Source: Candidatus Marinacidobacterales bacterium
GTDB taxonomy: Bacteria > Acidobacteriota > Vicinamibacteria > Marinacidobacterales > SMYC01
DNA length: 64,000 bases
Reading direction: 5' to 3'
Assembly: GCA_965237955.1 (NCBI GenBank)
Contig: OZ250169.1
Coordinates: 5,568,001-5,632,000, forward strand
Each line of letters begins with the position of its first letter. Position 1 is the stretch's first letter. The position numbers were made by a program, and so were the translations under genes. This document shows, piece by piece, positions 44,065-64,000 of the stretch. Under the pieces are notes generated by a model that saw nothing but the letters and a program-made list of their open reading frames with translations, had not been told where the DNA came from and searched no databases.

Positions 44065-44499
44065 CTACGGAAGGCTCTCGCTGGGTAAGAGTTGGAATCC
44101 TTCGGACAATGCAGCGTCGCAAAGTCGATCGTCGAGACAGACGAGGCTTTCGCCCGTCGGATCGTCTTCGCAAAAGACCAACGCGGCGGCTAGTTGGAGC
44201 GCATCCGCAGCTCGTAGGGGATGTACGGCTAGAAGTCGTCCAGCGCGTCGTCGTACGTCTTCGGTAGCGGCAACGGTGTCCGAATGGTCGACGAGAAGCT
44301 CCAGCCGTTGAAGAGCCGTTTCCAACATAGCTCTCGGCAACGGGTCCTCCCGGTGTCGTCGATAGATGGCCGATTTACACTCGACCGGGGTTCCCGACCA
44401 AAATACCGGGGTGGCGCTCGAGCGAATAATCGTCGTCATTTCATTCGAGCGAACCTCCGGAAGCAGCAGAGGAACCAAAGCCGAGCTATCCCAAAACAC
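44065..44499 (-). CDS. vapC: VapC-family PIN toxin
   Basis: FWDSSALVPL, VECKSA, LRAADALQLAAAL, CLDDRL.DAA..EGF. Confidence 0.88.
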   Translation of the reverse strand: MFWDSSALVPLLLPEVRSNEMTTIIRSSATPVFWSGTPVECKSAIYRRHREDPLPRAMLETALQRLELLVDHSDTVAATEDVRRRAGRLLAVHPLRAADALQLAAALVFCEDDPTGESLVCLDDRLCDAALSEGFQLLPSESLP

Positions 44500-44505
44500 T
44501 GGGCG

Positions 44506-44799
44506 CTAGCGACCCTCTTCACGCTCTGAAAGCAAAGCGGACAGCACATCTTCACCGATGTTCGTGGGGCCCTTGGGCGGTACGAGCAGCGATTTGGGCA
44601 TGCGGCGCTTACCGAGCTTGAGCAGACCGCCGGCCGCCAGCCGCTGCCGGCGGTCATCGCGCTTCTGAGTCGCATCGATCGGAACCAACTTTGCCACCGG
44701 TGACCCGCGCTCGGTGATCAAGATCTCGTTTCCCGACTTCACCTGCTTGAGATATTTGGCCAAGCGCGCCTTCAGTTCCGCTACCCCAGCCGTATCCAT
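44506..44799 (-). CDS. Phd/YefM-family antitoxin
   Basis: VAELKARLAKYLKQVKSGNEILITERGSPVAKLVP; immediately upstream of vapC. Confidence 0.9.
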   Translation of the reverse strand: MDTAGVAELKARLAKYLKQVKSGNEILITERGSPVAKLVPIDATQKRDDRRQRLAAGGLLKLGKRRMPKSLLVPPKGPTNIGEDVLSALLSEREEGR

Positions 44800-45057: not shown

Positions 45058-47988
45058 CTATATCAGCACTTTCTCCGGCTTCAGGATCACCCCTTCGTTG
45101 CGTCTCCCGTCCATCTTCACGACAAGAGGCGCATCGAAGCGCACGTGCCGAACCGGACCTTCCTCGGCGACGGCCTCTTGCTTGGCAAGCCAGTCCCAGT
45201 CGAGGAACCCCTCGCCCTCTGCCGGGTTCACGGTGAAGTAGCCGACGTTGTTCGAAATCAGGTTCTGGAAGAAATGCGTCCCCTGCGACGGGGTGACCCG
45301 GAAGTCGCGAAAACCCGCTTCGACGATCACACGCGCGCCGGCAATTTGACTCCAGTTCACCGGGATGCCGAGGTAGGGCTCGCGCGAGCCCCAACGTCCC
45401 ACGCCGATGAGAACGTACGGTCTGTTCTCCGCGTGCAGGGCTCGACCCATCTGACCCACGGTGTCGGCGGTGCGCCGGCTTTCCTTGCGCTCGAAGCGGT
45501 GATAATCGACGACGATCGCGTCCTTTAGGTCGGTGAGCAGGCCGTTGCCGAGCACGCTTCCGCTGTGACAGATCGTTTCGCTGTCGTCCACGTCGCCGAT
45601 CTCGATCTCCTCGAGCTCTTGCGCCAAGACCATAGGGCGCAGCTGAAGAAAGCCGAACTCCCGTCGTCCGTCGGGGGTCGGTGTGAGGTTCACCGCGAAC
45701 TCGATCTCGACCGGAGCACGCGTTCCTTCGCCACCGATAGCCAGCAGCGTTTCGAGGATTTCGGCGAGTGGGAACAGACCGTGCTTCAAAAGCGGAGCAA
45801 ACGTCACCACGCGCGGCCCGGCACGGGATACGCCGTCGTAGAGAGCGTCGTTCTCCGCCGAGTACGTCGAAGCGACGGCGGCGAGAGTGCCGTCGGTTTC
45901 GGCGCTGTCGAGCTCCCAGGACGCGAGCTCGACGCGATCGGTCTGTCGCAGATCGATGGCGTAGAAATCGCGTTGTGAAGTTTTCAAGATCGCGGGGAGC
46001 TCGATGGGCACATGGCGCGGGAACTTCGGGCTGAACCGAATGGCGCTTCCACCTTCCTCCACGGTTTTGCCGAGGCCGAGAGCCACCGCGACCATACCGT
46101 CGTCGTTTTTGGCCGGCGGCGTCGGATAGAAGTTGTACGAGCGTGCCGCGCCGGCGAAATCCGGGTAGAAGCGCTCGCCGTGAGGGGACCCGACGACCCG
46201 CTGGATGATGACGGCCATCTTTTCTTCTTCCAGCCGGTATTGAGTCGATTCGAGATAGATTTTGGCACTCGAGGAGAACGTGGACGCGTACACGCGTTTG
46301 ACCGCGGTCAGGAGCTGCTCGAGTCGGGTTTCGAGCCTACGGTGGTTGTTCGCGAGCATGTACGTCTCGTAGACGCCTGCGAACGGGTGATGCTGGGAGT
46401 CTTCGAGGAGGCTCGATGAGCGAACCGCGAGGGGGTAGCGAGCGCGGTCGAGAAACACTTTGAGATCCTTTTTGAGCTCGCGGGTAAACGTCGCCGCCTG
46501 GAATCGTTTGCCGAGCTCGTCGTCACGGTCGCATTGGATCGCGAAGTCGGCGAGGTCGTTGTCCTCCATGAAGCGGTCGAAAACCTCGGTGCCGATGACC
46601 ATCGACGTGGGCACCGACACCGTGACGCCGGGAAACTCGCGTTCGATGTGGAATTGGCTCAGCAAGTTGTTGACGAAAGCGATGCCACGGGCCTTGCCGC
46701 CGAGCGAGCCGCCGCCGACGCGATAAAAGCTCGCGGAGGCGTCGAAAGTGTTGCGGTCGAAATCGACGACCTGGCCTCGATTGCGCTCCTCGCGGTACTC
46801 GGCGATGGACTTGATGACCGACGTCCGTAGGTCCTCCAGTGTCGCGTAGTCGGAGACTTTGAGTGGTCGAAGTTTTGCCGCGAGCTGGAGCTCGGTGCGT
46901 GCCTTCAGCCACGTGGAAAAGTCGTTCCGCTCGCCGTGGTAGGCGATGCTCTCGGCAGGCACCTTCTCGAGCATGTGCTCCAGGGTCTTGAGATCCGACG
47001 CGTGCCCGATCTCCGTGCCATCGGGAAGCCGGAACACGAAGTCGCCGATACGAAGGCTTTCGACCATGAACTCGCGCACGTGGTTGAGAAGGAGCGGGGA
47101 GCCTTTGAGAAGGAATGACGCACCCACCGAACGCGCTTCGGTTTCGTTCTCCTTACGACTCGATTGAAGCATGATGGGCACGTCGGGCCGCACCGCGCGG
47201 ACCGCTCTGGCGAGCTGAACGCCGGCGTCGGCGCGCGCGGCGCCGTCTCGCGGGAATTGAATGTCAGAGATGATTCCGAGAATGTCGTTCGGGAAACGGT
47301 GGAAGTAGTCCCACGCCTCCTCGTAGTGGTCGCTCAGGAGGATCTTGGGTCGCGCGCGAATCCGCATGAGCTTGTCCGTCAAGTTCAAGCCTTCGGGCAT
47401 GAGGCTGTGAGAATGCTTGACGAGCTCGGTGTAGATGACCGGGAGAAACGAAGAGTAGTAGCGAATGTTGTCCTCGATGAGAACGATCGCGGGAACGCCG
47501 ACGATGCCGGTGTCGTGGTCGACGTTCATTTTGTCTTCCATGTACTTCACGATGGCGAGTAAGATGCGAACGTCGCCTTGCCACAGGAAGATTCGCTCGA
47601 TGGACGTGACGTCGTAGTTGTCGATGAACTGTGCGAGCTGGCGGCGGTCGTACGCGAGCAGCACCACCGGGGTTTCGAGCCCCTGGCGCCTGAGCTCCGC
47701 GATGAGCTGCAACACGTTCATGTCGCCGAGCTCGATGGACGTGATGATGAGGTTGTAACGGCTTGAGGCGTGGGCGAGGGAAAGCGCTTCTTTGCCCGAG
47801 TACACGTGGGTGATGTTGGGTGTGTGGCGTAGGTTCAGCTCGAGGAACTCGCCGAGAAACTGTTCGCTGAGTCGTCCGTCTTGCGAAAGAATGTAGTAGT
47901 CGTAGAGCGACGATACGAGGAGGACGTCCTGAACGCGGTTTTGGATGAGATCTTGGAAACCGTGGAATCGGTCGTTCCGCGTTGCCAT
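45058..47988 (-). CDS. Receiver-domain plus PEP/pyruvate-binding (PPDK_N) protein
   Basis: Two receiver-like domains; [47 protein letters not shown]. Confidence 0.88.
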
Positions 47989-48007
47989 CAGCAAGCTCTC
48001 GAAGAAA

Positions 48008-48719
48008 TCAGTTACACGGCTCGAGTGGTCTCATGAAACTTTCTATCTCAGAATCATTGCCTACGGTGCCGGTCAGGTCGATGGAGTGGGCAGGGGATTC
48101 GGGCGACGGATCCGGGCCGAACCAAATGCCTACGCGCCGGCGATCGTCATCGCATTCGAGCAACATCATCGTCACCAGGCCATCGTGGGCGTTGTCCATT
48201 TCTTCAGTGTCGATGGTGCCACGATGGCTGACCCCACAACACTTCGTCGTCAGCGCGATCCAGGCGTCCGCGTGCGACGCGCTCTCTCAGATCGACGTTG
48301 AACCGCTCTCGTTTCAGCGAGTCGACGTTTTCGGTGCGCCCTTCGAAGAAATCGTAGAGCTCCTCGTCTCCGTCGCCGAACGCTGGAAACGACATGAAGA
48401 TGAAGCCGTTTCTCGTGTACTCACCGGGTCTGCCATCGTCGGACGGGGGTTGGTCCGAGAGAACCGCGAAGTCGAAAACAAACGGAACGGAGAAGGCGGC
48501 CACGGTGAAATAGCCGTCCGGGAGCGCCTCGGCACCGAGGATCTCGAGTGCTTTCTCGGTCCGCGCTTCGGGATCGGACATGGTCTCGCCGAGCTCGCGA
48601 GCTTTTTGTGCTCCCCAAAAGCCCAAGCCGGCGACGATGAGAACGAGAGTCGCGATCGCACCCACGCAACCGCAACCGACCCAGAGCCAAGGTGGGAGCC
48701 CTTTCTTGTCGGTACTCAC
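48008..48719 (-). CDS. Hypothetical membrane-anchored protein, frameshift at ~48233
   Basis: WVGCGC plus TM; removing one G from GGGG joins to VSHRGTIDTEEMDNAHDG... Confidence 0.6.
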
Positions 48720-48839
48720 GGGCTAGTTGTCGACCTCCTTGTCGTGAGTTCGGGAGCACCTTAGCACGAGTTCACGCGCCGGTTGGAAAGCGACATGTTT
48801 TCCGCTATGGTCCCCCCCCACTATCAGGGAGGTGCTGAA

Positions 48840-49244
48840 ATGTTAGGGGAGTTGATTTTCGAGGAAAAGGGCACGACCACTGGCGTTCGGGTGTTGTCCG
48901 CGGAAGCCGTCGAGGTAAAAGTCGAAGTCACGCTGGAGAGGCAAGGGAAAATCAAGGGTGTCGACGAGAACTCCCTGTGGACCTACTGGTCGAAAACCCG
49001 CGCCGACGGTTCGATCTACGGTCAAGGCGAAGGCTTCATGACGACGAATGACGGGGCCGTCATCGCCTTGATTGGAAACTGCTCCGCCGAGTGGTCGTCC
49101 GATGGTTCTGTCGCTTATCGGGGTTCCATCCACTTCCACACGGAAAACGAGAAGTACTCGTATTTGAACACGATCGCGGGGGTTCACGAGTACGACGTCG
49201 ATGCGCAGGGAAACACCGTGGCCAAAATCTGGGAGTGGAAGTAG
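48840..49244 (+). CDS. Hypothetical beta-rich protein
   Basis: GGAGG RBS; MLGELIFEEKG...YGQGEG...YLN...EYDVD...KIWEWK. Confidence 0.7.
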   Translation: MLGELIFEEKGTTTGVRVLSAEAVEVKVEVTLERQGKIKGVDENSLWTYWSKTRADGSIYGQGEGFMTTNDGAVIALIGNCSAEWSSDGSVAYRGSIHFHTENEKYSYLNTIAGVHEYDVDAQGNTVAKIWEWK

Positions 49245-49298
49245 CGTCAACCCTAGCTAAAAAACACGTAGAATCGTGTCTCAAAGAGGAGAGGTACG

Positions 49299-49838
49299 AT
49301 GCGTCACGAAATTCTGTCCCTAGTCGCGGTGGGGGTGTTGGCGTCGGTCACGACGTTGGGTGTCCAAGAGCTCACGCAAACGTTCGTCGTGAACCTCAAG
49401 GACCCTCACCCCATCGAGGGCGACGTGAACGTTTCGTCGCCGATCCCCCACAGCGATATGACCAGCATGGTCGACGTGGTGGTCGCGCCGGCGACGCGCG
49501 AGCAAACCGGTCTGTGGACGGATGTCGGACCGATCGATACCGCGGGATTCACGTCCGTGGTGCTGAGCCTTCACGGACAACTTCGTGGCAGCACCGGCGG
49601 TACCGGAGTCGTCTCGCTCGTCCTCGTGCCCGACGAGGAGAACATTCTGCGTGCGTTTGCCGAAGGCGAAGTGCACCTCGAGCTCGAAGCGACCGCGGAC
49701 CCCGTTGCGACGAACGCCCTTTACTTCAGCGGCACGAGCGGCGACCTCCCGATAGGGTTTCCGAGCTATCGCGTCTTTCTCTACAACACGACCGAACGGA
49801 GCGCCTCGGTAAACGTCTTCGCCTACTTGGCGAATTAG
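49299..49838 (+). CDS. Hypothetical secreted protein
   Basis: GAGG RBS, signal peptide, host-like codon usage. Confidence 0.65.
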   Translation: MRHEILSLVAVGVLASVTTLGVQELTQTFVVNLKDPHPIEGDVNVSSPIPHSDMTSMVDVVVAPATREQTGLWTDVGPIDTAGFTSVVLSLHGQLRGSTGGTGVVSLVLVPDEENILRAFAEGEVHLELEATADPVATNALYFSGTSGDLPIGFPSYRVFLYNTTERSASVNVFAYLAN

Positions 49839-49937
49839 TTCACGGTCCGGCGCGCCGACGGCCGATGGCTGGCTGATGGCCGGCGGCTGATGGCCGATGG
49901 CGCCGCGGCGAGCCGCTCAGCGTTCTAATGGCGCTCG

Positions 49938-51317
<1,380 letters not shown>

Positions 51318-52180: not shown

Positions 52181-52690
52181 TCAATTGTCTAGGCACAACC
52201 ATTTTTTGAGCTTCGCCATCTGTTCGGACGTCAGAGACTGGTCGTCCAGGATTTGCACGAGGTGTTCGCGATTGCGAGCGAGCGGTTTGTAGCCGCAGCC
52301 GTCGAAGAGCTCGGGGCTTGTTTGCTCGAGAAGCGGGCGGGGGTAGTCGCGGCACATACCCGGCGGTGACTCGTAGCTGTCACAACGTCTCGTGTCCACG
52401 TCGAAGTGGGTGCATTTGAAGATGAACGCCTTGTCCTCACGGCGCGCTTCGACGAGGTCGAAGCCATTGATCTTGGCATGCCACCACAGGAAAACCTGGC
52501 GAATGAAAGGGAAATACCAAGTGAGCTTGCCGACTCGGATGCCGGGCTCTTCACAGCACTTCGCACAGCGGACGCATTCACCACCGAGATCGTAGCGGAC
52601 ATCGGCCTGAGCTCGGTGCAGCCACAACCGGGCGTAGTAGACGCCGAGGCTGATGCGCTTCACGCTCCGCAAAAACGGACCGTCTCTCAT
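52181..52690 (-). CDS. YkgJ-family Cys-cluster (CxxCxxCC) protein
   Basis: CVRCAKCC, FKCTHF, CDSYESPPGMCRDYP, GCGY. Confidence 0.85.
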   Translation of the reverse strand: MRDGPFLRSVKRISLGVYYARLWLHRAQADVRYDLGGECVRCAKCCEEPGIRVGKLTWYFPFIRQVFLWWHAKINGFDLVEARREDKAFIFKCTHFDVDTRRCDSYESPPGMCRDYPRPLLEQTSPELFDGCGYKPLARNREHLVQILDDQSLTSEQMAKLKKWLCLDN

Positions 52691-52708
52691 CCCAATGTCA
52701 TCCCAATT

Positions 52709-54478
52709 TCATCGAAGCAGCGTCGAGATCTCCTGGATGCGGCGCTCCAACGCTCGAGATTTGTCAGCGGCGCCGTAAAGCTCGCGCAGCTTTTCGGGGA
52801 TGAACATGGGGTCCGTGCTCTCGCGGATGGCAACGAGTTGTTGAAGCTCTTTTTCGAGACCGTAGTCCGGTGTTCGAAAATGCTCCAGGGTCTCGCGAAT
52901 GTGCTCGGCCGTCGGGGCATCGGCGCCTGCGATCGCGGCGCGTCGAACGCATTGGACGAGAAGGCTTTCGATGTCCGCACCCGAAAGCTCGGGGGGCAGG
53001 GGAGGAAGAGCTTGCTCGTCGATTCTGACGTCGTTCTTGCGCGCCATCGCCATGAACATTTCTCGACGGGCCGCTTCCGTTTCGGGCGGGAAGAGAGGAA
53101 TGTGCACTTCGCACCGTCCCTGGCGCTTCAAGTCGACAGGGAGCAGATCCGGCCGGCAGGTGAGAAGCACCCACAGAATTTTTCCCCGGTAGCGCGTGTC
53201 GCTCATGAGCGACGAGATCATCGCGAACATGCGACTCGACGTGCCGCTGTCACCACCGGCGGACCGGCTTCCCAGCGCCGCGTCGGCCTCGTCGATGACG
53301 ACCACGACCGGTCCGAGCGCTTTGATGACCGACAACACTTTTTGGAGATTGCCTTCCGAGCTTCCGACCCACTTGCTCCGCAGATTCTTGAAGACGATGG
53401 TCGGGATGCCGAGACTGCCGGCTAGACACATCGCGGTAAACGTCTTGCCGGTTCCGATCATACCGCAGAGCAAATAGCCCATCGGCAACGCTTCCAGGCG
53501 TCCGTCTTTGAAAAGCCGAACGTCTTGCTCGAGCCGCTCCTTCACCGCGTCGGGCGCGACCACGGTATCGAGATCGTAGCTCGGCGCAACGAATTCGACG
53601 AGACCGAAACATTGTTTTTCGATGAGCTCTTTCTTGGCTTCGCGGAGTCTCCCGAGGTCGACGTGATTGCCTTTGGCGCCGGAGCTTCCGACAGCCTGGC
53701 CGAGTCCTATTAGCGTGAGTCCGTTGGCCTCACGGGCAACGTCTCGAGCAGCCTTCGCACCTTCGACGAGCGTGCGCGCGTAGTTTTCGCGCGTAGCCTC
53801 GTCCGGCAGATCGACCTCGACCTTGGAGATGAACGGGTTCTCGACGATCCGGCGGTTGACGTCGCCAAGCGCGTCGGCGACGAGGCAGAGCGTGACGTCC
53901 GCACCGCGGATGCCGGGATCGTTTGCCCAGTTGAGGACTTTGATGAGGGTCGCTCCGAGCTCGCCACTCAACATCGAGCCGTCGACCGCAGGCGTGATCG
54001 TCTCGATATAGCGGATGACGATGGCGAGGCTTTTGCGATTCCCGTTTTTGGGTGTGTCGACGAGCTTGTGAAGGATGTAGCGGTCGAGGAGCTCGAAAAC
54101 GAGCTTCGGATCCTTGGCGCGCGAGTTGGCGTAGCTGGTCCCGCTGATGAGGTCGATGGCTTTGAGGGTCTTGTGAAAGTCTTCCTGCATCGCCTGTCGC
54201 CGGTCGCTGTCGCCGGGCGCGAGGAAGCGAACGCCGCTCCCACGGTCGTAGCTCAAGACGATTTCGCGCTGGCCGAAGAGCTGTGTCGCCAGGTAGTGCT
54301 CGAGAGATACAAACTCGTCCGCATCCCGCCGCCCGGGCCCGTTGGGCCCGGTGAGGACGACGGGGACGAGATCGTGGACGTTGCCGTGGAGGAGAAAGAC
54401 GCTCGCCGCACCGCTGACATAGCTCAGAGCGAGCTCACGCGCCCATTCGGGAGCGCTACGGCCCAAAGGGTTATTCAC
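52709..54478 (-). CDS. AAA+ ATPase, classic clade, with degenerate N-terminal AAA-like domain
   Basis: GMIGTGKT Walker A, SKWVGSSE pore loop, VIDEAD Walker B, TCRPDLL...KRQGR, SGADIE; GTG start overlaps pspA stop by 8 nt. Confidence 0.9.
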   Translation of the reverse strand: MNNPLGRSAPEWARELALSYVSGAASVFLLHGNVHDLVPVVLTGPNGPGRRDADEFVSLEHYLATQLFGQREIVLSYDRGSGVRFLAPGDSDRRQAMQEDFHKTLKAIDLISGTSYANSRAKDPKLVFELLDRYILHKLVDTPKNGNRKSLAIVIRYIETITPAVDGSMLSGELGATLIKVLNWANDPGIRGADVTLCLVADALGDVNRRIVENPFISKVEVDLPDEATRENYARTLVEGAKAARDVAREANGLTLIGLGQAVGSSGAKGNHVDLGRLREAKKELIEKQCFGLVEFVAPSYDLDTVVAPDAVKERLEQDVRLFKDGRLEALPMGYLLCGMIGTGKTFTAMCLAGSLGIPTIVFKNLRSKWVGSSEGNLQKVLSVIKALGPVVVVIDEADAALGSRSAGGDSGTSSRMFAMISSLMSDTRYRGKILWVLLTCRPDLLPVDLKRQGRCEVHIPLFPPETEAARREMFMAMARKNDVRIDEQALPPLPPELSGADIESLLVQCVRRAAIAGADAPTAEHIRETLEHFRTPDYGLEKELQQLVAIRESTDPMFIPEKLRELYGAADKSRALERRIQEISTLLR

Positions 54479-55229
54479 TGGATTCGGACGCGGCCTCTTT
54501 CTGGGGGCCGACGGTTTTCTCGGTCGCTTCCGACGAAGGCTCGGCGAGTCCTTGCTCGATCTTGAATTGAGCCAGGAGCTCACCGGCTGCGACTTGGTCC
54601 GCCGCCTGCTTTGCCTTGAGCGCGTCGATGCCCTGATCGCTCAAGTCCGACGCGACCTTGGACCGGGCTTTCGCTTTGTTGATCTGATCGTCGACCCGGC
54701 TCATGATGGCGTCGATATCAGACGACACATCGAACGAGGTATTGAGGGCGCCTGCCGTCTCGGAAACTTCGGCGAGCGCTTTCTCCATCTGGAGCGCCGC
54801 CTTCTTCTTCTCGAGGTCCTTCTTGCTGTTGCCGATTTCAGTGAGAGCCGCCTTCATCTTCAGAAGGTTGTTCTCGTAGTTCTCTTGGTGCTGGGCGAGC
54901 TGCTCGTTGTTGCTCTCGAGCCCGTCTTTGACTCGAGAAAGCTCCAGTGCGAGCTGGCCGGCCATCTCTTCCTGATTGGCCTTTAGATGGTTCTTGATCT
55001 GTCCGGTGAGGCTCGAGATCCGTGAGGTCTCGCTTGCGACTTGTGCCTCCACTTTCAGAACCAGTGCCTGATAGGAGATGAGCCCCTGGCGAGCCTCTTT
55101 CAGGCGTTCGGTAGCCTGCTGGAGTTTCGCCTCAGCCAGGGGGATGACGTGCTTGTCCTCCATCTCGGTGACGGACTTGTTGAACAAGGCGTACCAGACT
55201 GCTTGGATGCGCGCGAAAAGTCCCATCAC
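54471..55229 (-). CDS. pspA: PspA/IM30 (ESCRT-III superfamily) protein
   Basis: Amphipathic N-term GLFARIQAVW; long coiled coil with EEMAGQLALEL; ~250 aa; GGAG RBS; divergent member, start 55229 or 55226. Confidence 0.75.
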   Translation of the reverse strand: MMGLFARIQAVWYALFNKSVTEMEDKHVIPLAEAKLQQATERLKEARQGLISYQALVLKVEAQVASETSRISSLTGQIKNHLKANQEEMAGQLALELSRVKDGLESNNEQLAQHQENYENNLLKMKAALTEIGNSKKDLEKKKAALQMEKALAEVSETAGALNTSFDVSSDIDAIMSRVDDQINKAKARSKVASDLSDQGIDALKAKQAADQVAAGELLAQFKIEQGLAEPSSEATEKTVGPQKEAASESSE

Positions 55230-55279
55230 TGACTCCCTTCGATGATAGCTAGTGGAAGAATCCTAACAGCAATACTTTT

Positions 55280-55440
55280 CAACGGAAAGGAGGAAAGACG
55301 CGAAGGCGCAAAGGGGATCGATGGCTCGTCCGGATCCCGATGCGTGATCCTTCTTTGCGTCTTTGCGTCTTAGCGCCTTTGCGTTAAAAAGCATCATGTC
55401 GCGGATTCCTCTTGCGCCTTGGCGCCTTTGCGTTAAAAAA
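55280..55440. repeat. Intergenic CTTTGCGT/CTTGGCGC octamer repeat element
   Basis: CTTTGCGT-CTTTGCGT-CTTAGCGC-CTTTGCGTTAAAAA and a second GCGCCTTTGCGTTAAAAA copy; complementary AAGACGCGAAGGCGCAAAG arm; similar run at ~51340-51363. Confidence 0.65.
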
Positions 55441-55442
55441 CA

Positions 55443-58400
55443 TCACGTAGTGCTCTCGTCGGCCTCGGCCTCGGCTTCTTCAGTGTCGGTCATGTTCGAT
55501 AGCGCCGAGACGTTGATCTTTTCGAGGGCCTCGACGAGCTCGGGGATGTCGTCGACGTATTCCAGTTTGCTGATGAGTGCCTTGATGTTCGGATCGTCGA
55601 CGCCACGGTAGCCGCGGAAGCGATGGGCCATGAAGCGCATCAGCGGGATCAGCGTACCCTCGATGAGGTAGGACTCGCGCGAAATGAGCTCGTAATCCGC
55701 CGGCGGCGCCTCGGGTTCGGCGTCGGGCGCGACTCGCTGCTTTTGACCGTTCCCGAACGCCTCGAGGAGCTCGTGCAGCTTTTCGGTGTACGGTGAGAGG
55801 TCAAGCTGGACGTCTACCTGCGCTGGTTTGGCCGCGGCGGAAAACGCGGCCAGGTCGGGATCGACGGACAGTGCGGCTGGGCGCGAGCCAGCTTTCTCTA
55901 TAGCGCGGTCGATGCTCTCGCCGATGCCTTCGAGGTGCTCGGACACCATGCTGAGCTGACCGGTGAGGCGTGTTGCCGGGTCATCCTCGCCACTGCCCAT
56001 GCGTTGGATGCGGACGTAGCCCTTCTTGATCTCCTCCCACCGTGCGCGCTGAGCGTCGCTCAACCGTCCCCGCATCTCGCCGAGCTTGAGGAGATTCTCC
56101 TCCGCACCGGTGGTGAGCGTCTGTGATTCACCGAGATAGTGGTCGTCGATGAGGTTCTCGAGCTCTTCGTCGTTCATGGCCGGCACGATCTTCTCCGTCA
56201 GCTTGTTCATATTGCGGTAGCTCCCCTGGAGACGGAACGGGGGCTCGGTGCGATAGGCATCTTCTTGCGAGGCGGAGCGGATGTATTGCTGGTTGACGGC
56301 GAGCAGGGTCTGCTGCACCTTCAAGAGCTTTTTCAGCACCGACTGGATCTCGCCGATCTCCACCGCCGAGTAGCCGTGCTCGAGCTGGTCGGATTGAATC
56401 GGCTCTCCCTGAGCCATGCGCACGAGCATGACGATATCGTTCTGCTCTCGTGTCGTCAGCGGTGCGAGCACGTTGTTCGACGTCAGTGAGTTCTCGATGT
56501 AGGAGAGCGCGAACAGATCGCCTTTGCCTTCGAGAATGTCGCCGAGGTTATAGGTGTCGGCGCGGTTGGCGAGCATGTCCGGGATCTGGAATTTCTCGCC
56601 TGACTCGGTGTACGGGTTTCCCGCCATACACACGATGAACTTCTTGCCTCGCAGATCGTAAGTACGGGTGCGTCCCTTCCATACACCTTCCACTTTACGC
56701 TGAGCGTCGCACAAAGAGATGAACTTCTGGAGGAACTCGGGATGCGTGTGCTGGATGTCGTCGATGTAGAGCAGAACGTTGTTGCCCATCTCGAAGGCGA
56801 GATTGAGCTTTATGATCTCCTGACGCGCGGTCGCGTTCCCTGCCTCCGCGGGATCGAGTGACGTGACCGAGTGGCCGAGCGCGGGCCCGTTGATTTTCAT
56901 GAACACTAGGCCGAGGCGGTTGGCCAAATACTCCATCAGCGTCGTCTTGCCGTAGCCCGGTGGCGAGATGAGAAGGAGCATGCCCATCAAATCGGTCCGC
57001 TTGTCTGCGCCGAGCGCTCCCATTTGCTTGGCGAGGTTGTCGCCGATGAGAGGCAGGTAGACGTCGTTGATGAGGTGGTTGCGCACGAACGACGACATGA
57101 CTTTGGGCTTGTATTCGTCGAGGCGCAGGGCGTCGCGCTCTCGTTCGAGGACGGCGTGCCGCGCTTTCTGGAAGTCACGAAAGCCGGGAACGAGGCGGTA
57201 GCGGAAGTGGCCGAGGCGCGACAAGAACTCGTCGAGGTGGAGCTCCATGCGGCCTTGTTGAATCCGTGGATGCTGGCCTAGCAGTCCTTCGATACTCAAT
57301 TTCGCCTGCGCGCTCGATGTCTCCCGGCTCACCTTGCCTTCGAACAAGATCGCGACCACGGCTTCTTGAGCGGCGCGCGCCGTTTGATTGGTCTTCTCGA
57401 GAAAAGCCGTCACCCACGCGAGGGCAAGATCGTAAGCGCGCACCGGTGATTCTCGAAGCCCACGAAGATCCTGCTCAAAGTCACGCTCGGCGCTGGATTC
57501 GCGCAAATGCTTCTCGAACGCCTTCTTGAGCTCGTCGGCTTCCGCGCTCAAAACGAACTTCTGCGGCTCACGCGCGATCTCTTCGAGGAGATAGGCACCC
57601 GCGCGGCGCGCGGCGCGCTCGGGCACGTGGATGCCGAGCTCGGCCAGATGCTCGGCGATCGCGGTGTTGAGCTCGGAGCCGAGATCGGTGAGCGCGTCAC
57701 TTGTTTCGAAGTGCGTCCGCAGGCGATGCAAGCTCTTCGCCTGGTTTTCCCACGTCGTCCGCTTCTTGCGGTCCGGGTAAAGAGCCCAGAACACGGTGGC
57801 GAGGGCTCGCGCTGTGGGCGTGAACGCAGGAGATCGGCGCTCTCGTGCATGCCGAGAGTTTTCTGGAGGATGAGCGTGGCGTCGGCATCGTGGAGGCCGC
57901 GCTCGTAGCCTTCGTCGTAGCGCTCGGCCGCGTAGTCCCGCACGATGGCGAGAAGCGCGTTGTCCACTCGGGTGGCCTCGTGAAGCTTGGCCAGTGACAG
58001 TCCGGCGTCGCCGATCTCGGCGTCTTCGAGAATGCAATAGGCGAGGTACTCCGAACGATAGACGTCGTCGGTTTCCGAGACCAGTTCTTGCGCCCAGAAG
58101 TCACGCGTTTTGGCGAACTCCTCGTCGTCGATCTGCTCATAGAAACCGGTGCCACTCAGGTGGAACGCCATACCGTCTTCGCGCGGCACCATCGTGAGCT
58201 CCAACGGCTGGGTGTTGACGCTGAAGCGATGGCGTCCGAGCTTGATGACGTTAGCGCCGTCTTCGTAGATTTCTCGCCGATCGCGCAGACCTTGCGCGGC
58301 GTCTTCTTTGGCGGCTTTGAGCCGGCCATCGAGCTCGTCGGCATGCACCGAGTTGCCGAGCTCTCTCAGGTTGGCCGCGGTGTTTCGTAGCTTGGCGACC

Positions 58401-60823
58401 ATGGGGTCCGAAGCGAAGTATGCGTTCAAAGCGTCGGAGCTTTCGAACTTCTCGGCGCGTCTGGTGACGCTCCCGAGGATGCGATCCGCCGCATGCATCA
58501 AGTTCTGCGCTCGTCGTTGGCGCCGGTCGACGAGCGATTGCTTCTTGGAGCTGAACGCTTCGTAGATCTCTTCGCGCTTGGTGGTGAGCTCGGTCACGAA
58601 CTCGTCGAACTCGGAAAAGCGGGTTTCGAGGTCTTCGAGCTGCAGCATGAGCTTCGAGAGTTGCTCGTCGCACTTCTCCGGCGAGTCGGAAAGCGCCAGC
58701 GCGCTGGTGACGCTTTGGCTCAGCAGCTGAAACTGGACGCCGAACTCGGCCACGCCTTCTTTGCCGAGAAGCTCTTTGCGCCGGTTGGCGATGAGCGCCC
58801 GCACGCGGTTGAGGCTTCCCATGATCTCGGAGATGTTGCTGAGAATCTGGGTACGGACGGTCGCATCGTCGATCTCGAGCGAGCCGATGACGTCGGTAAG
58901 GAGGTCCAGGCCGTCACTGAGCTCCTGCAACGACGCCTGGTGGTCGTCCGCCTCGGTGACTTTCGAGAGTCCGGCGACGCCTTCTTCCAGCTCCGCCGCG
59001 CGTTGGTGGTAGGGAAGCAGTGCTTCGGCTTTCAACAGGAAGTCGACCGCCCGCTCGCTCACCGTATCGAAGCGCTCGATAATCTCCGCTTCGAGGGCGT
59101 CGATGTGCGTCAGGTCGACGTAGCGCACTTCACGGAGCGTGATCAGGTGGCCCCGGGCCGAGCGCAGGCTGGCCAGACAGGCGACGAACTGATCGATCGA
59201 CGTCCACGAATCGGGATAGATCGTCCGGAAGAGCTCCTGGATTTTCTCGGCGGCTTCTGCGACTGCCTTTTTCGCGTCAGCACGGAGCGCCTCGACTTTC
59301 TCGAACTCGTCGATGATGCTCTCGGCGGTCTCATGAACTTCGTCGAGGACTTCGCGCAAGTTCCCGATTTCGGCCTCGTCGAGCCAGTAGTAGCTGTCGA
59401 TGACGCGCGCGGTAGCGGCGACGAGGTCCTCGTACTTCTGGCGCGTCGGCTGCTGCTCGTCGACCATGCGGCGGATGCTGAGGCAATCGGAGACGCCGCG
59501 AACGAGCTCGGCGTTGCCGACTTTTTCGAGAAACGATCCCGTGGGCGGCAGCGCTTTCACGTGCTCGTCGCTCATGAACGGCGTGCGCCACAGCTGCATG
59601 TTGTGCACCCGCTTGGGCTCGTCGGTGTCGGCGCGGAAGATGATGACGGTGCCGTCAGGGAAGAGACTGAACCCGTGACAGGTGAGGGGATTATCCACTT
59701 CCTTCCGGATCATGTTGTACGGGAGCAGAATCGTGCGCCCCGCCTCGCGCTCGTGGAACGCGTACAGCACGTCCTCGCCGTTGGGGGAGCGGATGCGGCG
59801 CAAGTACTCCATCCCTTGGATCTCGCGTTCGAAAGATTTGGTGTGTCCGCTCTGCAGGTAATAACCGCCCGGGAAAATGATGCCGTGGTCTTCGGGAAGC
59901 TGGACACAGGCCTGACCGATCGCATCGATGCGATCGACTTGTTGGGTCCGGGTGTTGAACACGAGATATCGATACTCGGTCTCGCGGTAGGGGAGGACCT
60001 TGAGCAAGATTAGCGTGCCCACTGTTGCGTAGTGGACTTGGGCGTCGTCGAGCGCCTGGTCGGCATCGAGCACCGGCTCGCGATAAATGCCCTGGCCATC
60101 CTCGGTGTTGTTCTCGACTTTAATTGTCAGGTCGCCGCCGAGCGTCTCGACGAAGACTTCGTCGAGAATGTTGACGTGGGGGTAGTGGCCCTGGATGTGG
60201 TCCTCGCGCACCGTCGCAGTCCATTCGAAATCGTGGGTCGGAGGGAAGACGTGGTCACGCTCGCCGCGGTTGTCGATGTAGCTGACGGCGCCGTCGGGTG
60301 CTACCGCCCAGCGAAACACGCGCACGTCGTCAATCTTCTCGCCGATTTGGAACACCGCGAGCAGCTTTTCGCCGACGCTTCGCAGCTGGAGGAGCTTGGT
60401 TTGCTCATAATAACGATAGAGCTCCTGGAACTCCTCGATGAACTTGGGGTCGGAGAGGAAGTAGCCGGGCGCATCCTTCGAAACACTTCGCAACGAGATA
60501 CCCTCGTCGGTCTTCTCGAACGTATGCAGGCTGAAGACGTCTTCGATGTGCGTCTGGCGCTTGAGGCCGATGAAGACGTTGTAGCCGAACAGAAGGTAGT
60601 TGCCGACCTCCTTGATGTCCCGGGGAACACAGTTGTTCTCGGTACGGATCCGTTCGTTCCCGAGAACGGCGAGATCGGTGCCGCCGAAAAGCTCGAGGCG
60701 TTTCTTGTTGAGCGTCTCCGCCCGCTCGGCCAGGACTTTCCCGTGGCCGAGAAGGCGGTCGCGAATGATCTCGTAAGTGCCGCGCTCGATCTCGACCTTT
60801 TGGACGTCGGTGCTGGTGCTCAT
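55443..60823 (-). CDS. Giant 'DNA repair ATPase'-family (DUF3686-type) AAA+ protein, ~1790 aa, frameshift at ~57823
   Basis: GTYEIIR, RIRTENNCVPRD, PEDHGIIFPGGYYL, coiled coil, SPPGYGKTT, YIDDIQH, GNPYTESG, ANRAD; adding one T (CGTTC>CGTTTC) joins both ORFs as LLRFTPTARA. Confidence 0.85.
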
Positions 60824-60855
60824 TGCCTAATACCTAAAACCTGATGCCTAGCGCC

Positions 60856-62919
60856 CTAGAGCCTGACGTCGTCGATGCCGAGTGCCTTGGCCTGACGCTG
60901 GAGCTTCTTGAGCTTCTCGAGGTCGTCTCCTCCCGTGCCGGTGTCAATTTCAGTGGCGAGCTTCGCCAGGAGCGCGCCGATGGTGATGTCTTTCAACGTG
61001 CCGCCATCGATCCCGGACTCCCGCATCGCCTGACGGATCTCCTGGATGATGTTCTTGTCGCCGTTCATGAAGTCCTTGGCGAGGCCGGAGATGACATCGC
61101 TCTTTTCTACGAGCTCGTCGATGCCCTTGCCCATACCGATGGAGTTCACCATACGGTCGAGGAAGGCGCCGTCGCCGCCGACGATGTCGATGTCGGCGGA
61201 TTCGAGGGCCGTGGCGAGGATCTTGGCCTTGTGCGCGGCAACGCTCTCCCGAGCTTGGATGGCTTCGAGCCCGAGTACCTTCTCGTTCTCGATGCGCAGG
61301 CGGTACTCTTCGTGCGCCCGGCTGTCCTTGTCGAGAGCTCGCATCGCTTCGGCCTTTTCGGCAATACCCTTGGCTTCGGCGGCGAATTTGTCGGCGACAG
61401 CGTGCGCGTGGGCCGAGCCCTTTGCGCGCACGACGGTAGCCTCGGCGGTGCCCACCTTCTCGACCGCGGCGGAGTCGGCTTCGCGAACACGTACTTCCGC
61501 GAGACCGTGCTTCTCGGAGGCGATGGCGTCGGCTTCTTTGACGCGGGCGGCGGCGAGACCTTGGGCCGCGGATTCGGCCTGGACGCCTTCGGCGATGCGA
61601 ATCTTGGACTTGGCTTCGCGATCGGCGGCTTCGAGCTCGGCGTCGGCCAGGGTGACGAGCTCGACGGCTTTGTGCTTCGCGGCCTGCTCCTGAGCTTCGG
61701 CGGCCTTGATGTCCTTGACGAGCGCTTCCTCGGCCTCGGCCTCGGCGGCGATGACCGTCGCTTCCTTGTTGCGCTTCGCTTCCTCGACGACCTGAAGCTC
61801 TTTGATGCGCTCCTGCTCCTCGACGACGGTGCGCTCGACGGCGACACGCTCACGGATGACGTCTTGGATCTCTTTGCGCTCGACTTCGAGAGCTTTCTCT
61901 TTGTCGATGCGTAGAAGCTCGACCTCACGTTCGCGGATTACGGCTTCGAGCTGGCGGTCTTTCGCGACACGCTCGGTCTCGACCCCGATGACGCGCTCGC
62001 GGTTTTTCCCAGCAACCTGGACTTGTCGGTTCTTGTTCTCTTCCGCGACCATGACTTCTTCGTCGGTCTTGATGCGGGCTCCTTCGGATTTCAGCCGTTC
62101 TTCCGCCTGGACTTGCATCAGTAGCGCGGTTTCGCGGGCGCGGACGGATTCGATCTCGCGCTGTTGCTTGGACTTCGCGTCGGCCTCTTCGCGGTCGAGC
62201 TCGAGAATGACTTTGGCGCGCTCGACATCTTGTTTCTTGATGGCTTTTTCTTCGTTGTTCTCGAACTCGTTAGTCTGGACGTGCTCGACCGCGGTGAGCT
62301 CGGTGATGCGGCGGATACCTTGGGCATCGAGGATGTTCTTGGGGTCGAGGTGCTCGAGGGGGGTCTGCTCGAGGTAGTCGATCGCGGCGTCTTCGAGGAC
62401 GTAGCCGTTCAAATCGCGGCCGATGAGCTCAATGATGGCGTCGCGAAACTCATCGCGTTTGGTGTAGAGATCGACGAAGTCGAGCTGTTTTCCGACCGTT
62501 TTCAGCGCCTCGGAGAACTTGGCGCTGAAGAGCTCGTCGAGCGTTTCGGGGGAGGAAGCGCGGGCGCAGCCGATTGCTTGAGCGACTTTGATCACGTCTT
62601 CGACGCGCTTGTTGACGCGCACGAAGAACATGACTTTGATATCGGCGCGAATGTTGTCGTGGCAGATCAGTCCGTCCTTGGCGCGGCGGTCGATCTCGAT
62701 CGTCTTGACCGAGATGTCCATGACCTCTGCTTTGTGGATGACCGGCAGAACGAAAGCGCCGGTAAACGTCACCTCGGGCTCTCGCTTCATTTTGTTGACG
62801 ACGAGCGCCTTGCCCTGCTCCACCTTGCGGTAGAACTTGGACACCATCATCAGGAATCCCCAGCCGATGATGATGAGCGCTACGACACCCACCGCACCTA
62901 GAAACACTAAATCCATCAT
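60856..62919 (-). CDS. Flotillin/SPFH-domain protein (YqiK-like)
   Basis: N-terminal TM; YRKVEQG, HKAEVMDISVK, DNIRADI, IDYLEQT, DAQGI; long EA-rich coiled coil; DIVGGDG. Confidence 0.9.
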   Translation of the reverse strand: MMDLVFLGAVGVVALIIIGWGFLMMVSKFYRKVEQGKALVVNKMKREPEVTFTGAFVLPVIHKAEVMDISVKTIEIDRRAKDGLICHDNIRADIKVMFFVRVNKRVEDVIKVAQAIGCARASSPETLDELFSAKFSEALKTVGKQLDFVDLYTKRDEFRDAIIELIGRDLNGYVLEDAAIDYLEQTPLEHLDPKNILDAQGIRRITELTAVEHVQTNEFENNEEKAIKKQDVERAKVILELDREEADAKSKQQREIESVRARETALLMQVQAEERLKSEGARIKTDEEVMVAEENKNRQVQVAGKNRERVIGVETERVAKDRQLEAVIREREVELLRIDKEKALEVERKEIQDVIRERVAVERTVVEEQERIKELQVVEEAKRNKEATVIAAEAEAEEALVKDIKAAEAQEQAAKHKAVELVTLADAELEAADREAKSKIRIAEGVQAESAAQGLAAARVKEADAIASEKHGLAEVRVREADSAAVEKVGTAEATVVRAKGSAHAHAVADKFAAEAKGIAEKAEAMRALDKDSRAHEEYRLRIENEKVLGLEAIQARESVAAHKAKILATALESADIDIVGGDGAFLDRMVNSIGMGKGIDELVEKSDVISGLAKDFMNGDKNIIQEIRQAMRESGIDGGTLKDITIGALLAKLATEIDTGTGGDDLEKLKKLQRQAKALGIDDVRL

Positions 62920-62950
62920 CGAAATCCCCCTCTTACAAAACCGTAAAGGC

Positions 62951-63758
62951 TCACGATTCCTCCGTAACTTTGGCGGCTTCGGTGAGCGCTGCGTCCACCG
63001 GGCCTATGAAGAAGACCCCTTCGGACGGCTCATATCGGTAAACGAGTGCCTGCGCACCTCGTGTCAGCCCGTTGTCTTGCGGACAACGGACCTCGGCAAC
63101 GAAACCGGCACCGCCGTCTTCGATCTCGGCGCGGCCGAAATTTCCATCGACGCGTGCCGAAAGCACGGTGCATATTTTGCCGATGAGCGACGCGCGGCGT
63201 GGAGCTTGCTGCGTAACGAAGAGCTTGCGGAAGGGCCGGGAGCTGATGGCCGCCATGATGAGAGCGCCGAAACCGGACGTAACGGCGATGGCGAGTCCAA
63301 CGATCACCGTCGCGGCCAGCGGTCCCAGGAACCTGGTGCTCAAGTAGCTGAGGATCCAGGCCCAGAAGAGCACGAACGTGCCCACGATCGTGATCGGCAT
63401 CCCGCGGACGCCCATGGCGTTGAGTAGACCGCCCAAAAGGCCACCATCCTCGCCGTCTGCGGCGTCGGCGTCGGCAGCGCCCTCGGCAGCCCCTTCCGCG
63501 ACACCTTCAGCACTGGCGTCGAGCGCGCCGTCGATTGATTCAGCCGCGCCTTCGACCCCGCCGTCCGCCACTCCTTCGATCGACTCGAGCGCCCCGTCGA
63601 ACGCGGCATCCATGCTGTCGAGGCCGAGGACGCTATCGAGAAAGTCGAGATCGAGTGCGCCGAAAATCACGACCATCCAGTACAGTGAGCGCCATCGCCA
63701 GGGCACAGGTGAATGCGATCGTGGGAAACGACACGAGCGTTGTCAGAAACTCCTGCAC
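62951..63758 (-). CDS. YqiJ/NfeD-like membrane protein with C-terminal OB fold, frameshift at ~63686
   Basis: GTG start VQEFLTTLVSFPTIAFT...LYWMVVIFGALD; GMPITIV; SLIGKICTV..RVDGNFGRAEIEDGGAG; directly upstream of flotillin. Confidence 0.82.
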
Positions 63759-64000
63759 TCTTTCGGCTCCTTTCGACTGACTCGTTGCGGGTGGCCCGAT
63801 GCGAGACGATCGCGGGCGATCACGCGCCGACCGATGCAACAATGAGGCACCCTGCTAAGGAAGCCCCTTCCGTTCGATAGAAAGCTATCGGTACGTGAGA
63901 ATCGTGAAATCGGTTGTGAATGTGCCGGTTGTAGCGATTCGGGCTTTTTCAGACCCGAACTCTGCGACTAATAGTAAGGGAAGTCCGACCGAAAAATCAA

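Follow-up and report, generated by a model that had tools for sequence, protein, structure and literature searches.

In the Bac-type operon, a CesT/Tir gene and genes for PspA, a YqiJ/YuaF protein, a flotillin and an AAA ATPase follow one another (PMC11237479; Pseudomonas aeruginosa bacABCDEF, PMC2587700, PMC10948618; these and the other cited sources are represented by the excerpts covered), and co-transcription of PspA, a short NfeD and an SPFH gene has been described for P. aeruginosa bacA-F (PMC10948618, PMC13086221). A second context, a dyad of PspA with a two-domain AAA+ ATPase, has been described by Ravi et al. 2024 (PMC11237479, main text and Text S2.2), where the two contexts are treated separately, with the fusion unmentioned in the parts covered, and ATP-dependent Snf7/Vps4-like remodelling is proposed. 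The Bacillus subtilis pspA-ydjGHI operon likewise pairs PspA with an SPFH protein and membrane partners, the SPFH protein being required for bringing PspA to the membrane (PMC8581546), and a 2025 review describes a Vps4-like ATPase as apparently absent in bacteria and the regulation of PspA polymers as open (PMC7619361; further background on the field in PMC11188069 and PMC9239133). Positions 52181-63758 of the 64,000-nucleotide stretch of contig OZ250169.1 analysed here (the window, from a Candidatus Marinacidobacterales bacterium) hold a cluster in which both contexts meet, with genes for a YqiJ-like protein, a flotillin, a DUF3686 ATPase, PspA, a tandem AAA ATPase and a YkgJ-type protein, in that order.

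The six genes are co-directional on the minus strand and separated by 31, 32, 213, -8 and 18 nucleotides, matching the co-direction and the gaps (~30, ~30, ~210, -8 and ~20) given in an earlier note on this DNA, whose family assignments for all six genes are each supported by profile searches and homologue comparison; what that six-gene reading overlooked are two frameshifts, in genes 1 and 3. The cluster is a join of two separately mobile modules, one comprising the YqiJ-like, flotillin and DUF3686 ATPase genes (module 1, the trio) and the other PspA and the tandem AAA (module 2). Compared with the Bac-type operon, the same trio occurs in the same order with a PspA-family gene in the cluster, and identity to the Hymenobacter copy of that operon is 43-48% for the giant ATPase and 44% for the flotillin, the likeness to the P. 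aeruginosa bac operon resting on this Hymenobacter comparison and on published descriptions. The locus differs in that a second ATPase is present, PspA lies downstream rather than upstream of the trio, and neither a phospholipase D gene nor a CesT/Tir gene before pspA occurs in the cluster (DUF2170 was found nowhere in the genome). Its PspA is also of another clade than YjfJ/BacB, being 27% identical over 157 amino acids (E 0.016) to the PspA of the Hymenobacter operon, which another copy in the genome matches at 46%. The published dyad likewise places PspA directly before a dead-then-active tandem AAA; its homologues carry the published, optional ABC module (ABC ATPase, permease, PBPB-OmpA and TM-Snf7), whereas the locus of the window's family is without it and has the flotillin trio upstream and the YkgJ-type gene downstream. 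B. subtilis YdjI is of a different SPFH type (PMC8581546, PMC11237479), and that operon is described without ATPases in the text covered (PMC8581546).

The PspA/Vipp1-family protein (54471..55229, minus strand; 251-252 amino acids) belongs to a clade travelling with the tandem AAA and ends in a K-x-[LV]-G-P tail. It matches PF04012 (PspA_IM30) at 37.1 bits against a cut-off of 33.9, its alignment profile retrieves only Vipp1 chains from the PDB, and its model folds into an N-terminal helix, a long hairpin and short distal helices (4-22, 27-82, 86-156, 179-186 and 199-224), Vipp1 occupying the first 12 Foldseek rows (best E 5.9e-4); this PspA/Vipp1-type fold bears out the earlier assignment of the 252-residue protein to the ESCRT-III superfamily. 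A tail of the form K-x-[LV]-G-[PSA] is found in 40 of 44 homologues, and three PspA subfamilies each have their own conserved tail (KxLGP, MGP and LPE), which may serve as a docking site for the tandem AAA.

Overlapping pspA by 8 nucleotides is the gene for the tandem (type II) AAA+ ATPase (52709..54478, minus strand, GTG start; 589 amino acids), identified from a Pfam AAA match, sequence motifs and a model. Across 46 homologues whose domain motifs were compared, the first domain carries an HGNVHD-type sequence where the P-loop would be and lacks an acidic Walker B, and the second has a GxxGxGK[TS] Walker A, a DEA Walker B, a K[WY]VG aromatic pore loop (KWVG here) and RQGR arginine fingers, a dead domain followed by an active one. 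The model (predicted local distance difference test, pLDDT, 86) contains two AAA folds with no extra N-domain and matches p97/Cdc48 D1-D2; a p97-like tandem AAA architecture with such a pore loop is characteristic of a threading unfoldase. Among the best 80 of at least 595 confirmed tandem-AAA loci (from Planctomycetota, Acidobacteriota, Gemmatimonadota, Myxococcota and others), PspA is present in 66, and 13 of the 14 misses have less than 3.5 kb of upstream DNA. Coupling of PspA to the tandem AAA is near-obligate, and the flotillin link is optional. The YkgJ-type CxxCxxCC protein (52181..52690, minus strand; 169 amino acids; Pfam 24.2 bits) is a passenger of module 2 in this acidobacterial family only, and its place in the machine, as earlier proposed, was rejected: just one of the 80 tandem-AAA loci carries ykgJ. 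Further tandem-AAA subfamilies from Planctomycetota and Myxococcota (L296, L297 and L301-L304) show no PspA nearby by the queries used. Here and below, G labels denote the genomes compared (G000 is the window's genome and C1 its contig), L labels loci and X labels sequencing runs.

Within the acidobacterial family, DUF3686 occurs in nine of 18 genomes; outside the family, none of 22 genomes of the order has it. The order yqiJ-flotillin-ATPase-pspA-tandem AAA is retained in all six loci complete on one contig, from three further genera, with ykgJ next in five of them; the loci of G004 and G007 are interrupted by contig ends. The site is fixed between leuB and gdhA across the family, and the same flanking genes are found, at 60-78% identity, at a locus titled Acidobacteriota, two close homologues also being so named.

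Recurrence of the join outside the family was examined in 69 DUF3686 loci (9 from Acidobacteriota, 36 from Planctomycetota and 24 from Myxococcota), usually with 3-4 kb of upstream and 8 kb of downstream sequence. A distant tandem AAA stands beside the trio in four of the fetched loci and a further search added a fifth, giving joins in five of 40 Planctomycetota genomes with DUF3686, in three layouts different from one another: pspA (Pfam 39.7 bits)-AAA (34% identity)-hydrolase-trio in G530; trio-pspA-like-AAA, the window's order, in G601 (ATPase 29% identity) and G690; and, in G666 and G539, a PspA-type/AAA pair transcribed divergently from the trio. The four joined groups sit apart in the trees of both ATPases, each with unjoined relatives nearby, and a third, distant ATPase subfamily has a PspA-like gene in the fetched region for 13 of 13 members. 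By a rough estimate on the analysts' own assumptions, 0.07 joins would be expected by chance against three events outside the family (about 120 genomes with both modules, by hand union; a 4-kb target in 6.5 Mb), kin being non-independent and drafts hiding links. Comparison of sequences and layouts points to about four independent joins, involving three ATPase subfamilies and four layouts; no join was seen among Myxococcota. A view of the join as unique to the window's family was overturned, a single query having missed the distant subfamilies. In a literature search no paper was found that treats the joined layout or tests either ATPase, although the full context tables of PMC11237479 may list the fusion; the recurrence of the join appears to be new, with both modules and the Vps4 analogy already in print. 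Of the neighbourhoods that the earlier note describes as noted without a known mechanistic description, both halves are published, and the covered text of PMC11237479 already conjectures ATP-dependent Snf7/Vps4-like remodelling. In another Planctomycetota genome, G731, a flotillin trio is immediately preceded by two classical pspA genes (L225:1962-3473).

The repeated joining is an argument, beyond the gene order of one lineage, that the trio and the PspA-ATPase pair share a pathway. On balance it is somewhat favoured that the two modules cooperate in repairing or remodelling the inner membrane, with flotillin marking a patch, PspA polymerising on it and the tandem AAA recycling the polymer. 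By analogy with solved SPFH-NfeD complexes, the flotillin and its partner with three transmembrane helices would form a cage on the cytoplasmic face, and the giant, possibly MoxR-like ATPase would assemble or remodel the cage or its cargo. PspA could be recruited to the flotillin patch, as YdjI recruits PspA in B. subtilis, and would polymerise on the stressed membrane; a double hexamer of the tandem AAA would then grip the PspA tail in the pore of its second ring and extract subunits, a task equivalent to that of Vps4, although the protein is not Vps4 itself. The pairing resembles the archaeal (CdvB/CdvC) and eukaryotic ESCRT-III and Vps4 systems in placing an ESCRT-III-superfamily polymer with a conserved C-terminal tail beside a classical-clade AAA with an aromatic pore loop; it differs from Vps4 in the absence of an MIT domain, in having two AAA domains rather than one, and in best structural matches to p97/Cdc48. 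Membership of Vps4/CdvC was rejected (31 bits with the CdvC model against a cut-off of 650; no MIT domain, two modules), and the tandem AAA is at most an analogue of Vps4. A broader proposal, regarded as tentative and on the whole doubtful, is that bacteria have repeatedly built an ESCRT-like cycle from unrelated parts, in which a flotillin cage and giant motor would hold the site, PspA would shape the membrane, and a p97-like tandem ATPase would read the tail and dismantle the polymer in place of the Vps4 that bacteria are said to lack. Within a single short cluster the layout supplies candidates for the disassembly motor, the docking tail and the membrane scaffold. The question of PspA and its motor is addressable with two soluble proteins, for which intact relatives would be a better source than the damaged copy in this genome.

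Several observations weigh against cooperation of the modules, many of them shared with its chief competitor, that two independent operons are merely adjacent. On that account, which is considered possible but unlikely, PspA and the tandem AAA work as a pair and the trio works alone or with a distant CesT/Tir-PspA, the family join being one inherited event and the others coincidences of stress-gene clustering. The trio was detected by profile search in none of the 80 tandem-AAA loci (three weak BLAST flags were not confirmed by profiles), and the PBPB-OmpA binding protein of the ABC module is present in 54 of them, making an ABC importer the usual partner of PspA-AAA. With the window's tandem AAA as query, no copy was found within 30 kb of DUF3686 in any of 21 Planctomycetota or 71 Myxococcota genomes holding both modules, and where both lie on one contig (22 cases) they are at least 0.8 Mb apart; among the sampled genomes, DUF3686 itself was present in 8 of the 400 from other Acidobacteriota, 40 of the 301 from Planctomycetota and 96 of the 251 from Myxococcota, and no linkage of trio and pair was seen in 24 fetched Myxococcota loci or in the eight other Acidobacteriota genomes. 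Some of the evidence for cooperation is itself soft: confidence in the PspA model is only moderate (pLDDT 70; predicted template modelling score, pTM, 0.51), the PspA-like partner in G601, G690, G666 and G539 is weakly assigned (Pfam E 0.007-0.5), its assignment in the third subfamily following a profile chain at 99.6% and then 91.8% (against the G530 family) compared with 25% directly against the window's family, and the copy in the window has two broken genes. In the four genomes of genus g2, pspA-tandem AAA(-ykgJ) lies directly beside leuB, at the same site, with the trio precisely absent, an arrangement also seen on two metagenome contigs; two trees nest g2 among trio-bearing lineages (G008 deepest; support 97 and 0.94), and loss of the trio in g2 is therefore the simpler reading.

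Adjacency of independent operons is further favoured by the separate promoter-like motifs of the two modules and by a separate CesT/Tir-PspA pair, the published partner type of the trio, at about 1.157 Mb of G000:C1, 4.5 Mb away, with 44-46% identity to the Hymenobacter Bac-type pair and present in five of 18 relatives; in the text covered, Ravi et al. suggest that trios use PspA from elsewhere (PMC11237479). Set against this are the roughly four independent joins, as well as the distribution of the Tir-PspA pair, which was not found in the trio-bearing genomes G004, G006, G007 and G017 (drafts) and is present in G013, a genome without DUF3686. The pair also appears identical across genera: the PspA protein of L172:6517-7611 shares 100% identity with the copies carried by G015 and G018, which belong to another genus, and this suggests recent transfer. 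The earlier one-system claim is accordingly sustained as regards non-random linkage of the blocks (six of six complete family loci; repeated Planctomycetota joins) and weakened by their separation in most genomes holding both; the unlinked and separately transcribed blocks that would have spoken against it are found in part, given the counts of none in 71, 21 and 80 above and a promoter-like motif of pspA's own.

That the cluster is an anti-phage or vesicle-shedding machine is regarded as very unlikely. Its patchy presence and repeated loss or decay (in g2, G011 and this genome), the occurrence of one trio on plasmid pQBR103, and a weak match between the tandem AAA and the defence ATPase IetA/IteA (50 bits) would fit such a role, but the IteA score is one tenth of the cut-off (510) and reflects a generic AAA domain only, other PADLOC matches are coiled-coil noise, the tandem AAA has no plasmid match, the scanned neighbours include no defence genes, and throughout the family the locus occupies one fixed housekeeping site, flanked by leuB and gdhA. 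The earlier anti-phage suggestion thus found no support in the PADLOC defence-model scan, and membership of IetAS was rejected (IetA 49.9 bits against 510, no protease in the cluster; the IetAS partner is presumably an S8 protease). Hardly better placed, and if anything a shade less probable, is the view of PspA-AAA as the remnant of a solute-import operon (PspA, PBPB-OmpA, ABC permease and ATPase, a transmembrane protein and the tandem AAA) serving transporter assembly: the closest relative outside the family, L035 (57-60% identity), does have ABC genes between pspA and the ATPase, but six genera and metagenome loci of the clade retain the pair, at 65-94% identity, with no ABC genes, which does not look relic-like. 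The ARC1 cluster of P. aeruginosa is a different system, as far as the covered text of PMC8926400 describes it.

Module 1 begins with the YqiJ/YuaF-like protein (62951..63758, minus strand, GTG start), identified by family profile and homologues and comprising three predicted transmembrane helices and a C-terminal soluble domain. A Hymenobacter protein bearing the annotation DUF1449, which we take to be the YqiJ family, is matched at 120 bits by a profile built from 17 homologues and is located in a Tir-PspA-DUF1449-flotillin-ATPase operon; the Pfam YqiJ and NfeD models were unmatched here and in four intact homologues. Next is a flotillin-like SPFH protein of 687 amino acids (60856..62919, minus strand) with one N-terminal transmembrane helix, a Band_7 domain and a long charged helical region, 44-56% identical to proteins annotated SPFH/flotillin. 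Its Band_7 match reaches 46 bits, over the cut-off, in the genome search, whereas hmmscan gave none; scanning with Pfam and NCBIfam yielded no YqiJ, NfeD or flotillin match, and neither the flotillin profile nor the YqiJ-like profile retrieved any match among PDB sequences. The third is the giant DUF3686/DUF7902 AAA+ ATPase (55443..60823, minus strand), identified by Pfam and about 1790 amino acids long if intact, with one AAA_5-like module. It matches DUF3686 at 708 bits, and also DUF7902 and AAA/AAA_5 (AAA_5 25-27 bits against a cut-off of 22, AAA slightly higher), and the motifs SPPGYGKT, DDIQH, AGNPY, LANR and GSYRN are kept in 13 of 13 intact homologues, with DD rather than DE as Walker B. 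The clade would be labelled MoxR-like from its AAA_5 match; PDB sequence search returned P-loop-level matches only, and a description of the protein as propeller plus coiled coil comes from the covered part of PMC11237479.

In this genome a single additional base near 63686 ends the frame of the YqiJ-like gene after 41 codons, and the giant ATPase gene has one base missing near 57824, giving 1091 amino acids before another frame takes over. Both genes are intact in six relatives (G006, G012, G015, G017, G018 and G008), and in relatives the ATPase is a single open frame of 1796-1916 codons. A census against a short-contig relative, made at the protein level (the DNA-level version being noisy, with 62 clusters, many at gene ends), identified frame changes in 16 of 191 genes; about 12 are internal by the analysts' own reading, or one per 18 kb, at which rate two in 11.6 kb are unremarkable (P ~0.13). 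By a similar reading, 31 housekeeping open reading frames (66 kb) appear full length where 3.6 breaks would be expected (P ~0.03), these frames having been located by characteristic motifs, of which nine matched nothing. Contigs of runs X1 and X2, which are one study and may be the source of this assembly, agree with the window across both frameshift sites, and more distant strains in runs X3 and X6 have an intact reading there; in a control at another frameshifted region, no main-strain contig bridged the site. Real inactivation is judged rather more probable than assembly error, and module 1 is probably decaying in this genome. A decayed copy is also found in G011, where two internal deletions have removed the flotillin and the tandem AAA with ykgJ retained (L019:6800-12300); there the first part of yqiJ continues directly into mid-sequence of the giant ATPase gene, and pspA is cut after about 83 codons.

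The two modules likely have separate promoters. For module 1, a sigma70-type promoter is predicted at 63971..64000 (minus strand; TTGATT-18 nucleotides-TACTAT), read by eye from a 10-sequence family alignment and followed by a conserved leader of about 210 nucleotides. In the leader (63760-63970) the motif CACAAC(C/T)G is repeated, and all 10 of the sequences retain one hairpin; its consensus fold is weak (-6.35 kcal/mol, one stable hairpin), for which reason a riboswitch is not claimed. For module 2, an extended -10 motif (TGTTAGGAT) is predicted from the alignment at 55260..55268 (minus strand): about 35 nucleotides ahead of pspA, TG-N-TAnnAT can be read by eye in 13 of the 17 sequences aligned, whether module 1 precedes it or not. 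A strict promoter scanner returned no sites against 2.0 expected, and Rfam gave no match in three relative loci. In RNA runs, a fraction of just 0.06-0.12 of the sequence words was present. Between the modules lies an inserted REP-like inverted repeat (55280..55440, unstranded), with 128 BLAST matches in the genome, a long hairpin and very high depth in metagenome runs, which is missing from the spacer in six of seven relatives. The 213-nucleotide pspA spacer is inflated because of this element, spacers in relatives without it measuring 40-74 nucleotides.

Two more PspA genes lie in the genome outside the window, the third pspA (L173:5101-6959; 176 codons) ending beside an ISL3 transposase gene and probably being truncated. 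An ISL3-type element also occupies G000:C1 5632063-5633783, 63 nucleotides past the window end and 305 nucleotides upstream of the cluster, and has about 60 near-identical copies genome-wide; a presumed IS200-like element adjoins it, inside the promoter of a conserved element on the leuB side. That element, about 250 nucleotides of non-coding sequence between leuB and the cluster (G000:C1 ~5634500-5634750; L015:12350-12600; L034:3830-4110), is shared by family genomes that have the flotillin trio and by others that lack it, and features a promoter-like TTGACA...TAGTAT on the leuB-facing strand, a conserved core and a terminator-like hairpin; it has no Rfam match and looks like a small RNA. In the region 45058-51299 of the window, near gdhA, there is a 978-amino-acid gene, which we take to encode a phosphoenolpyruvate/pyruvate-binding dikinase-like protein and whose order is kept in G011, and what is presumably a small PIN-type toxin-antitoxin-like pair (44065-44799). 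Elsewhere, the genome carries five full-length groEL copies and three dnaK-like genes.

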